This document shows positions 21,701-58,797 of a DNA stretch of 64,000 nucleotides, in pieces (within the stretch, counting starts at the first letter, position 1; the number at the start of each line of letters is the position of its first letter). A program made the translations under genes and the position numbers. The stretch lies in the NCBI RefSeq assembly GCF_044324785.1, contig NZ_CP172127.1. One strand, 5' to 3'. Origin of the DNA: Escherichia coli (GTDB lineage Bacteria; Pseudomonadota; Gammaproteobacteria; Enterobacterales; Enterobacteriaceae). The notes under the pieces were generated by a model that searched no databases, was not told the origin of the DNA, and saw only the letters and a program-made list of their open reading frames with translations.

Positions 21701-24502
21701 TTATTCGACGTTCAGCGCGTCATTAACCAGATCTTGTTGCTGTTTCTGGTGAACGGACATATACCCTACCGCCGGAGAGGCGGAGGCCGGGCGGCCTGCA
21801 TAACGCAGAGAAGCCCCAAACGGAATCACTTCACGGAAATGATGCTGGCTGCAGTACCATGCGCCCTGGTTGAGCGGTTCTTCCTGGCACCAGACAAAAT
21901 CCTTGACGTGAGCAAACTGCTGCAACACTTCCTGCATCGCTTTATGCGGGAACGGGTAGAGTTGCTCGATACGCACAATGGCGACATCGTGTTGATTGTT
22001 CTTACGGCGTTGTTCCAACAGGTCGTAATAAACCTTACCAGAACACATCACTACGCGCTTCACGCCCTTCGGATCAAGCTCGTCGATTTCACCGATGGCT
22101 GGCAGGAAGGTGCCGTTCGCCAGTTCTTCGAGGCTGGAAACCGCCAGCGGATGACGCAGCAGGGATTTCGGCGACATCACGACCAGCGGACGACGCATCC
22201 CGCGCAGCGCCTGACGACGCAGCATGTGGTAAACCTGTGCCGGGGTAGACGGTACGCACACCTGCATGTTTTGCTCAGCGCAAAGTTGCAGATAACGTTC
22301 CAGACGCGCGGAGGAGTGCTCCGGCCCCTGCCCTTCGTAACCGTGCGGCAGCAACATCACCAGACCACACATCCGGCCCCATTTCTGTTCGCCAGAGGAG
22401 ATGAACTGGTCGATAACCACCTGAGCACCGTTGGCGAAGTCACCGAATTGCGCTTCCCAGATGGTCAGGGTGCGTGGTTCTGCGGTGGCATAACCGTATT
22501 CAAACGCCAGCACTGCTTCTTCAGACAGTACGGAGTCCCAGACACGGAACGCGCCCTGGCCGTTATGGATGTGTTGCAGCGGCGTGTAAGTGGAACCGTT
22601 AGACTGGTTGTGGATCACCGCGTGGCGGTGGAAGAAGGTACCGCGACCGGAGTCTTCACCCGACAGGCGAACCGGAATGCCTTCGTCAACCAGCGTGGCG
22701 TAAGCGAGGTTTTCCGCGCCGCCCCAGTCGAACAGTTTCTCACCGGCTGCCATTGCCTGGCGATCGCCATAAATCTTGGCAACGCGAGACTGCATTTCAA
22801 CTGCTTCCGGCACCGTGCTGATGCGTTTAGCCAGTTCCTGCAGGCGCTTCATCTCAACTTTGTTCGGGTACTCTTCGTCCCATTCGTGGTTGAGGTACGG
22901 TGACCAGGTGAAAGAGTGCATGTTCATCGGACGCCACTCTGCTACCACGCAATCGCCAGCATCCAGCGCATCGCGGTACAGGTTAACCATCTCGGTGGCA
23001 TCTTCCAGCGTCGCGACTTTTTCCTGCTCCAGCTTGTCAGCGTAGATTTTGCGCGGCGTCGGATGTTTTTTGATTTTCTGATACATCAGCGGCTGGGTTG
23101 CGCTCGGCTCGTCGGCTTCGTTATGGCCATGACGGCGGTAGCACACCAGGTCGATGAAGACATCACGTTTAAAGGTGTTACGGAAATCGAGCGCCAGACG
23201 GGTCACAAAGGCAACGGCTTCCGGATCGTCCGCGTTAACGTGGAAAATCGGGGCCTGAACCATCTTACCGATATCAGTACAGTACGGCGTAGAACGGGCA
23301 TCCAGCGGATTAGAGGTGGTGAAGCCAACCTGGTTGTTGATAACGATACGTACCGTACCGCCAACTTCATAACCACGCGCTTTCGACATGTTCAGAGTTT
23401 CCTGAACCACGCCCTGCCCGGTCACTGCGGCGTCACCATGAATGGTGATTGGCAGCACTTTGTTGCTGCTCGGCTCATCAAGTCTGTCCAGACGGGCACG
23501 AACAGAACCGATAACTACCGGGCTTACAATCTCAAGGTGAGACGGGTTAAACGCCAGCGCCAGGTGCACCAGGCCGCCATCGGTCTGGAAGTCAGACGAG
23601 AAGCCCATATGGTATTTCACGTCGCCTGTGCCGAGGTGTTCTTTATGTTTACCGGCAAACTCGTCGAACAAGTCTTGCGGTTTTTTACCCAGCACGTTCA
23701 CCAACACGTTCAGACGACCACGGTGCGCCATTCCGAGAACCACTTCGCGGGTGCCGCTGTTGCCAGCGTGGCGGATCATCTCTTTAAGCATCGGGATTAA
23801 CGCGTCACCGCCTTCCAGCGAGAAGCGTTTTGCGCCAGGGAATTTTGCGCCGAGGTAACGTTCAAGGCCTTCAGCGGCGGTCAGTTCGCTTAAGAAGCGT
23901 TTTTTCTCTTCGCTATTGAAAGTCGCGCGACCAGACTCGATACGCTGTTGGATCCAGCGTTTTTCTTCGGTGCTGGTGATGTGCATATACTCGGCACCAA
24001 TCGGGCCGCAGTAGGTTTGCTTGAGTGCTTCCAGCAGTTCGCCGAGTTTCATGGTTTCTTTGCCGCTGGCAAATGAACCGACGTTGAAGGTCTCCTGGAA
24101 GTCTGCTTCGGTCAGATCGTGGAAAGACGGATCCAGATCGGCCACTTTATCTTGCTGCCACAGTCCCAGCGGATCGAGATTCGCATGCTGGTGACCACGG
24201 AAGCGGTATGCGTTAATGAGCTGCAGGACTTTAACCTGCTTCACATTGGTGTCAGGGTCGGAGATCGTTGAAGAGTAACGTGAAGCGTCTTTCGCCAGGC
24301 GGCGGAAATATTCACGCGTTTGAGAGTGGAATTGATCCGGTTTGACTCCCGTACCAGGTAACTGCTGGAACGTCGAACGCCAGTTAGCGTCAACCGAGTC
24401 AGGATCGGTTAAGAAGTCTTCATAGAGCTGTTCTATCCAGCTCTGGTTTGCGCCAGAGAGGTAAGAAGAGTCCAACCAGGCTTTCAAAGCGCTGTTCTGC
24501 AT
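21701..24502 (-). CDS. sucA: 2-Oxoglutarate dehydrogenase E1 component
   Basis: 933 aa ORF. Confidence 0.97.
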
Positions 24503-24702
24503 CGTGATCCCTTAAGCATCTTTTTTATGCTTACTTCGCCGTGGATACTACCACGCACAGTGATGTGCGTGCCGGGGTTCACTTGCGAGCTCTTGTCTAC
24601 GTAGTGGCTCGCGAAGGAACCTTTAAAAACTGTCTTAGTGTCAGGGGCAGTTTTTAAAGATTTCCTGAATAGCCGGGGGATTTCCCCGGCATCAACATTT
24701 AA
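24503..24702 (-). other. sdhB-sucA intergenic region with nested palindromes
   Basis: Inverted repeats read directly: CACGCACAGTGATGTGCGTG, GGTTCACTTGCGAGC/GCTCGCGAAGGAACC, TTTAAAAACTG/CAGTTTTTAAA, CCGGGGGATTTCCCCGG. Confidence 0.3.
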
Positions 24703-25419
24703 TTACGCATTACGTTGCAACAACATCGACTTGATATGGCCGATGGCGCGCGTCGGGTTCAGCCCCTTCGGACATACACTGACGCAGTTCATGATGCTGT
24801 GACAGCGGAATACGCTGAATGCATCGCTCAAACCGTCGAGGCGGCTGTCAGTCTCGGTATCACGGCTATCGATCAGGAAACGATATGCCGCTAACAAGCC
24901 TGCCGGGCCGATAAACTTATCGGGATTCCACCAGAAAGACGGACAAGAGGTTGAACAACATGCGCAGAGAATACATTCATACAGCCCGTCGAGTTTTTCG
25001 CGCTGCTCTGGCATCTGTAAATGCTCGCGAGCTGGCGGATTTTGTCCATTATTCAACAGGTAAGGCTTAATTTTCTCATATTGCGCATAGAATTGTCCCA
25101 TGTCTACCACCAAATCGCGGATCACCGGTAAACCTGGCAGCGGGCGAATCACAATCTTCTTGCCCGGCTGGTTGAGTGCCGAAATCGGGGTAATACAGGC
25201 CAGACCATTCTTGCCGTTCATGTTCAGACCGTCGGAACCGCACACACCTTCACGGCAGGAGCGACGGAACGACAGGCTGGGATCTTTCTCTTTCAGCTGG
25301 ATAAGCGCATCCAGCAGCATCATGTCACGACCTTCTTCCGCTTCCAGGGTGTAATCCTGCATACGCGGAGCATCATCAACATCCGGGTTATAGCGATAAA
25401 TTGAAAACTCGAGTCTCAT
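24703..25419 (-). CDS. sdhB: Succinate dehydrogenase iron-sulfur subunit
   Basis: 238 aa ORF with Cys clusters. Confidence 0.97.
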   Translation of the reverse strand: MRLEFSIYRYNPDVDDAPRMQDYTLEAEEGRDMMLLDALIQLKEKDPSLSFRRSCREGVCGSDGLNMNGKNGLACITPISALNQPGKKIVIRPLPGLPVIRDLVVDMGQFYAQYEKIKPYLLNNGQNPPAREHLQMPEQREKLDGLYECILCACCSTSCPSFWWNPDKFIGPAGLLAAYRFLIDSRDTETDSRLDGLSDAFSVFRCHSIMNCVSVCPKGLNPTRAIGHIKSMLLQRNA

Positions 25420-58689: not shown

Positions 58690-58699
58690 GGTCTGAATT

Positions 58700-58797
<98 letters not shown>

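Follow-up and report, generated by a model that had tools for sequence, protein, structure and literature searches.

Within the 64-kb stretch of Escherichia coli DNA analysed here (the window), open reading frame calls placed sucA at 21701-24502 and sdhB at 24703-25419, both on the minus strand, with a 200-bp spacer between them (24503-24702); apart from the strand, this is the layout that the initial annotation of this DNA had described. The spacer is transcribed from the minus strand, right to left in window coordinates; in the RNA sense it is bounded on its 5' side by the sdhB stop codon TAA (24703..24705, minus strand) and is followed by the sucA start codon ATG (24500..24502, minus strand). 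The sdhCDAB-sucABCD genes are reported to give rise to a 10-kb read-through transcript (PMC9731577, PMC5371410, PMC4161252, PMC6393394), and two of these papers place a terminator inside the operon, along with a secondary promoter (PMC4161252, PMC6393394). Read-through of the internal terminator in K-12 is partial (PMC4161252). In the window, a scan of 24300-24900 for intrinsic terminators returned 0 sites, and a consensus scan of the same interval found no sigma-70-like promoter on either strand.

A repeat search found six pairs of inverted repeats at the spacer region. When the spacer was folded in the RNA sense, its minimum free energy (MFE) was -70.7 kcal/mol (z = -5.4); 200 dinucleotide shuffles averaged -47.5 ± 4.3 kcal/mol, and not one of them (0/200) was as stable. 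The complementary strand was also stable, to a similar extent (z = -6.1), because palindromes fold equally well on both strands; the assignment of strand therefore rests on gene orientation and on the literature. Five clear local hairpins (H1, H2, H3, H4 and H6) were present in the fold, together with a long-range helix (P1) and one weak, non-conserved hairpin that overlaps the GlnZ site and lies between H4 and H6 in RNA order. Repeat pairs I2, I4 and I6 correspond to the local hairpins H2, H3 and H4, and folding supplied two more hairpins of 7 bp. The spacer had been said to hold at least four inverted repeats, and this count is confirmed. It had also been said that the palindromes are nested, which applies to P1, since this helix encloses H4 and H6, but not to the other hairpins, which lie mostly side by side. 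The imperfect long-range repeats I1 and I3 were rejected as structural elements: both are absent from the MFE structure, and I3 needs H1, a feature of this allele that is missing in K-12-type alleles.

The first element in RNA order is H1 (GCCGGGG-AAAUC-CCCCGGC; 24672..24690, minus strand), a GC-rich hairpin of 7 bp and 19 nt located 12 nt past the sdhB stop. It is followed by H2 (GGAAAUCUUUAAAAACUG / CAGUUUUUAAAGGUUCC; 24616..24665, minus strand), an AU-rich stem of 17-18 bp with one bulge and a 15-nt loop, to which the fold adds two further weak pairs; H2 excepted, the longest helix in this allele does not exceed 8 bp. H3 (CGCGAGC...GCUCGC; 24585..24613, minus strand) and the 8-bp H4 (CACGCACA-UCAC-UGUGCGUG; 24552..24571, minus strand) flank the 5' strand of P1 (GUGAACCC; 24575..24582, minus strand), whose predicted partner in both the MFE structure and the RNAalifold consensus is GGGAUCAC (24504..24511, minus strand). 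This 3' strand overlaps the Shine-Dalgarno region AAGGGA. Between H4 and the start codon, RNAduplex placed the GlnZ target core UCCACGGCGA at 24536..24545 on the minus strand (-43 to -34 from the ATG), and H6 (UAAGCAU-AAAAAAG-AUGCUUA; 24513..24533, minus strand), with its A-rich loop, overlaps the purine-rich tract GAAGUAAGCAUAAAAAAGA (24519-24537).

Comparison with K-12, which had been proposed as a check, gave a divided answer. The spacer of K-12 MG1655 is 300 nt long, against 200 nt in the window. From H2 to the sucA ATG the alignment was identical over 165 nt, but where the window spacer begins with 35 nt that carry H1, K-12 has a 135-nt BIME made up of three REPs; the proposal had overlooked the REPs of the K-12 spacer, and what it turned up was a polymorphism instead of identity. 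The K-12 sdhB-sucA region (Cunningham & Guest 1998, as cited in PMC9731577 and PMC5371410) is thus the same locus, with the BIME there and H1 here. The REP consensus (GCCGGATGCGGCG..CGCCTTATCCGGCCTAC) was not found in the window spacer, where the K-12 BIME aligned with unrelated sequence, and blastn-short gave no match in 24503-24702 to the BIME of K-12 or to two REP units. The sole BIME/REP match to the K-12 units in the 64-kb window was a BIME at 58699-58797, whose two REP units are 96-97% identical to REP2 and REP3 of the K-12 sdhB-sucA BIME. ERIC/IRU elements are imperfect palindromes of ~127 bp with a conserved core, represented here by the ERIC1R/ERIC2 primer sequences. This core had no match at up to 8 mismatches in 22 positions in the window or in the K-12 spacer; spacers of other genera matched it with 1-5 mismatches. 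For the window allele, the hairpins are therefore distinct from canonical REP units, as had been maintained, and the identity to a known IRU or REP element that had been named as grounds for refutation was not found, because the spacer contains neither REP nor ERIC/IRU sequence. In addition, cmscan of all 4,227 families of Rfam 15 at E <= 10 returned two matches at chance level only, mir-4889, with 16.1 bits against a gathering threshold of 90, and DUF3800-XI, with 11.4 bits against one of 37.8; E exceeded 4 for either. The enterobacterial sucA leader is without an Rfam entry. Rfam does hold the motifs sucA (RF01070) and sucA-II, which lie upstream of sucA in other proteobacteria; these are likewise structured RNAs directly upstream of sucA, to which the spacer has no significant match.

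The REP-free form of the spacer is common. A 400-nt query centred on the spacer matched many complete E. coli genomes at 100% identity, ATCC 8739 among them, and a 66-nt probe across H1 had matches in 1,760 of 5,426 complete E. coli genomes (32%). In these 1,760 genomes the H1 segment occupied a median of one place per genome, beside sdhB among the matches listed, and it has one copy in the 64-kb window; the segment is thus not dispersed as a REP or BIME is. The sdhB-sucA junction itself has a median of one site per E. coli genome in the collection; of its 5,434 matches, one belongs to a plasmid record, and up to 4 copies were seen in a few genomes. Further E. coli alleles carry four or six REPs in spacers of 349, 361 and 455 nt. 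In E. coli SK0832 (NZ_AP046542.1; locus L005, 960-2308), a transposase gene of the IS3-family element IS1397 lies between sdhB and sucA in a spacer of 1,796 nt. IS1397 targets REP/BIME sequences, and its insertion in SK0832 would fit a BIME-bearing allele. The window spacer is in these respects largely ordinary, namely the hairpin-rich spacer of the tricarboxylic acid operon already studied in K-12, present here as a common REP-free allele. What is new is modest and comparative: the REP-free allele is common, and the leader that it shares with K-12 is conserved across the family.

The conservation was examined by searching the first 150 residues of SucA against species-representative genomes, which gave 80 loci in Enterobacteriaceae, 78 of them with definable spacer boundaries. 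Spacer length across these 78 loci ranged from 198 to 660 nt, with a floor of ~200 nt. Apart from the window, 79 spacers were sampled, and a pattern search located the core with the 5' arm of H2 in 78 of them (77 of the 78 loci, and K-12); in the one exception, L084, the arm was recognisably diverged. Covariation was measured in a MAFFT alignment of 32 distinct cores of up to 180 nt, with slid partners and shuffled columns as controls. The RNAalifold consensus of the 32 cores recovered H2, H3, P1, H4 and H6. At the pairs of the structure, 97.3% of cells were paired, compared with 25-47% when partners were slid by 1-3 columns, and 12 of 40 pairs had changed on both sides, compared with 2-5 when slid; none of 500 column shuffles reached any of the observed measures. 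One pair of H3 was AU in 11 sequences, GU in 11 and GC in 10, another was GC in 25 and AU in 5, and in H4, whose loop ranged from 3 to 13 nt, five of the six counted pairs showed changes on both sides. P1 and H6 were near-invariant across the 32 cores (in H6 the stems were invariant and the loops variable) and H2 almost so, with a few compensatory changes in its upper stem that came almost entirely from the two most divergent sequences. Covariation is therefore silent on P1 and H6 and hardly tests H2. Taken together, the 165-nt core is a conserved structured RNA with compensatory changes, mainly in H3 and H4. The near-invariance of H2 across the family shows that this hairpin matters; it does not tell what cuts or binds it.

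The loop of H2 is free in length, from ~5 to more than 125 nt, with the stems kept. An insert of ~125 nt occupies the loop in Klebsiella, Raoultella, Lelliottia, Kosakonia and others; it contains the ERIC core, and in E. coli genomes its sequence recurs at several intergenic places (median 4 per genome). In locus L044 the insert lies at ~1254-1380, and with such ERIC-like inserts (also in L022, L010, L062 and L007) H2 becomes a very long imperfect helix. In some Citrobacter (L061, L007) there is a second ERIC-like insertion point, between the GlnZ site and H6. ERIC/IRU elements thus occur at the orthologous locus in the H2 loop or before H6, and are found in neither the window nor K-12. The spacer of Salmonella Typhimurium is 523 nt long, with the GlnZ site at -166 (PMC9731577), which suggests an insertion similar to the ERIC inserts. 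One locus of the sample, L056 (CACSKA010000002.1), was titled 'Chryseobacterium sp. 18061' and carried an enterobacterial sdhB-sucA locus with a typical core and a SucA N-terminus 89% identical; this assembly is probably mislabelled or contaminated.

The segment directly after the sdhB stop is also structured in all spacers sampled, here by sequences that differ. Its first 70 nt reached -16 kcal/mol or lower in 78 of 78 spacers (K-12 and 77 other genomes), with z < -2 in 70 of the same 78. The hairpins at this position are mutually unrelated in sequence and of three sorts: REPs, a repeat of the CCCTCTCCC/GGGAGAGGG type, and unique GC hairpins. Since different sequences repeatedly fill the same position with a stable stem-loop, the stem-loop after the sdhB stop is best explained by selection for structure itself, and the selected structure would be a 3'-exonuclease barrier or a pause/termination element of the sdhCDAB message. 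The H1 of the window belongs to a small group of homologous hairpins (CCGGGGAA..CCCCGG), whose other members come from Citrobacter amalonaticus, C. sedlakii, two Citrobacter sp. and Salmonella enterica subsp. arizonae; this distribution suggests that H1 represents the older state in this clade and that the BIME alleles are derived. H1 resembles REP/BIME 3' stabilisers and attenuators in being a stable GC-rich stem-loop at the same place, within ~12 nt of the stop; unlike them, it is a single-copy hairpin of 19 nt without the REP consensus and is not a member of that family. By analogy, H1 plausibly works as BIMEs do. An element GAGGGGAGCG..TTCCCCTCACCCTAACCCTCTCCC..GGGAGAGGGG recurs at the H1 position, in the first ~65 nt after the sdhB stop, in Enterobacter, Leclercia, Kluyvera and Lelliottia (L010, L011, L013, L015, L018, L019, L027, L028, L035, L037, L053 and others). 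Both this element and the CCCTCTCCC/GGGAGAGGG-type repeat presumably resemble boxC.

Processing of the region by RNase III has been reported for K-12. In one study the sdhB-sucA region is given three sites for RNase III, which lie upstream of the GlnZ site, and in an rnc mutant SucA changes and SucB does not (PMC9731577). A second study counts sucA as a textbook RNase III site, with pnp cited alongside as a classic, and its ratio of rnc to wild-type reads has a strong peak at K-12 position 758515, inside the spacer (PMC5371410). Our fold of the K-12 spacer contained a helix of ~30 bp between REP1 and REP2, a REP3 hairpin, and H2 with 18 bp. In K-12 coordinates the REP1/REP2 helix spans 758409-758485, and H2 spans 758542-758593. 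Position 758515 falls in the loop of REP3, between the REP1/REP2 helix and H2, and for this reason the sites may lie partly or wholly in the BIME; on the folding model, the BIME, H2 or both could harbour the published sites. In the case of the BIME alone, the window allele would be without them. A typical RNase III substrate is about two helical turns long, ~20 bp or more. With its 17-18 bp and a bulge, H2 is borderline, at the short end of this range, and in the REP-free allele it is, as modelled, a candidate RNase III substrate. It shares with the RNase III hairpins of the rpsO-pnp leader type the position of a long hairpin in an operon-internal spacer. When those hairpins are cut, the downstream cistron changes in stability or expression; the helix of H2 is shorter, and H2 is a candidate site.

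At the other end of the leader, sequence comparison and published experiments meet. GlnZ, an Hfq-dependent sRNA derived from a 3' UTR, represses sucA by pairing in the leader (PMC9731577), and this pairing has been tested experimentally in K-12 (PMC9731577; bioRxiv 10.1101/2022.04.01.486790). When K-12 GlnZ was paired with the spacer by RNAduplex, its UUGCCGUGGA was complementary to UCCACGGCGA, and neither this site nor H6 nor the ribosome-binding site of the window differs in sequence from K-12. GlnZ no longer represses SucA in a delta-rnc strain (bioRxiv 10.1101/2022.04.01.486790). A purine-rich region of 15 nt near the translation initiation region (TIR) is reported to be needed both for translation and for repression by GlnZ (PMC9731577). 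The overlap of P1 with the Shine-Dalgarno region further leads us to infer from the folding model that P1 partly sequesters the sucA ribosome-binding site.

The initial annotation had read the structures as a processing or protection element in the spacer of co-transcribed sdh-suc genes. The K-12 literature, together with the identity of the 165 nt, supports this reading; what it missed are the GlnZ target and the ribosome-binding site, predicted to be partly sequestered, so that control of translation has to be added to it. We think it probable that the spacer is an intercistronic leader RNA for processing, stability and translation control, present here as a REP-free allele. In such a leader, H1 would mark or protect the 3' end of sdhCDAB as a barrier to 3'-exonucleases, and possibly as a weak terminator; the BIME of K-12, at the position of H1, would do the same job. 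H2 would most likely be the site at which a double-strand-specific nuclease (RNase III) parts the sdh and suc halves, and H3 and H4, both conserved, would give structure to the sucA 5' leader that results. The last ~45 nt would then present the single-stranded GlnZ target, the A-rich H6 and the ribosome-binding site, and P1, by partly sequestering the latter, would set and regulate translation of sucA.

Several other functions might account for the palindromes. They could be copies or remnants of dispersed REP/BIME or ERIC/IRU elements with no role specific to this locus, and such elements do enter this very spacer: it carries 3-6 REPs in K-12 and other E. coli, IS1397 in one case, and ERIC-like inserts in other genera. 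In 24503-24702, however, the searches with BIME/REP units and with the ERIC core came back empty, the H1 segment and the whole spacer are single-copy (median one place per E. coli genome), and H2 to H6 are conserved orthologously at one locus; we regard this origin as very improbable. Termination or attenuation between sdhB and sucA could also be the main function, with H1 as the internal terminator, through which the two halves could behave like separate operons. This proposal is compatible with the leader reading, and it draws on the partial read-through of the internal terminator in K-12 (PMC4161252) and on the strong hairpin after the sdhB stop in every sampled species. At H1 itself a stem is present, but a U-tract is absent (CUAUUCAGG comes next) and the terminator scan was negative; moreover, the K-12 observation concerns a BIME allele, and the 165 nt downstream would be left unexplained. 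As the main function, termination seems to us rather unlikely.

The inverted repeats could instead act as DNA, as sites for dimeric regulators or for IHF, or as parts of the internal suc promoter, Psuc. Cunningham and Guest are said to have found in 1998 that Psuc is repressed by IHF, and the half-sites of a palindromic operator would co-vary as well. Two papers also report that a promoter lies inside the operon, between sdhB and sucA (PMC6393394, PMC4161252). Against this, the promoter scan of 24300-24900 was negative on both strands, and the spacing of the H2 arms (~5 to more than 125 nt) and the variable loops of H3 and H4 are incompatible with a protein site of fixed geometry. At many positions a G-U pair has also taken the place of G-C or A-U; the H3 pair at columns 76/102, for one, has 11 GU cells, and such a replacement keeps RNA pairing and not DNA symmetry. 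Because the H2 loop varies in length while the stems are kept, and because G-U substitutions are frequent, RNA pairing is favoured over a DNA site of fixed spacing, and we consider action as DNA unlikely; an internal promoter may nonetheless overlap the hairpins. A last candidate is an upstream peptide encoded by the leader. An open reading frame of 32 aa with a GTG start does exist at 24484-24582 on the minus strand, where it spans the leader and runs out of frame into the start of sucA. It was rejected as coding: a comparison of 30 species showed the frame interrupted in most by stop codons or shifted by indels whose length is not divisible by three, and no ribosome-binding site is evident, which leaves the peptide almost no credibility.

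Under the reading of the spacer as a leader RNA, what is at stake is its control over how much succinate dehydrogenase is made relative to 2-oxoglutarate dehydrogenase from a single 10-kb transcript, and its place as the entry point of nitrogen-status control through GlnZ; the known picture is not overturned. The K-12 spacer is not the sole form in E. coli and is probably not the ancestral one, and what RNase III experiments have shown for K-12 may not hold for strains with the REP-free allele, should the BIME contain the cleavage sites. A wider proposal is possible, although we hold it with more doubt than belief: the 165-nt core from H2 to the ATG might be a cis-regulatory leader throughout Enterobacteriaceae, with H2 as the ancestral processing site, and REP-free alleles might differ measurably from BIME alleles (3-6 REPs) in RNase III processing, in the stability of the sdhCDAB 3' end and in sdh/suc stoichiometry, as natural variation produced by MITE turnover at three insertion points.

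Within E. coli the leader itself also varies. In B2-type E. coli, H3 is swapped for GCGGAC...GUCCGC and the H4 loop is extended from 4 to 12 nt with the stem kept. Two leader morphs can thus be told apart when loci L003 and L004 are set against 24552-24613 of the window: CGCGAGC..GCUCGC, as in the window and K-12, and GCGGAC..GUCCGC with the 12-nt H4 loop. The second probably accounts for most of the ~1,117 E. coli genomes in the 90-95% identity band. The window morph is common to Yokenella, Pseudocitrobacter and Trabulsiella, and the second morph is common to E. albertii, Salmonella arizonae, Citrobacter and Klebsiella; since both also occur in other genera, this distribution suggests an old polymorphism or recombination at the locus.
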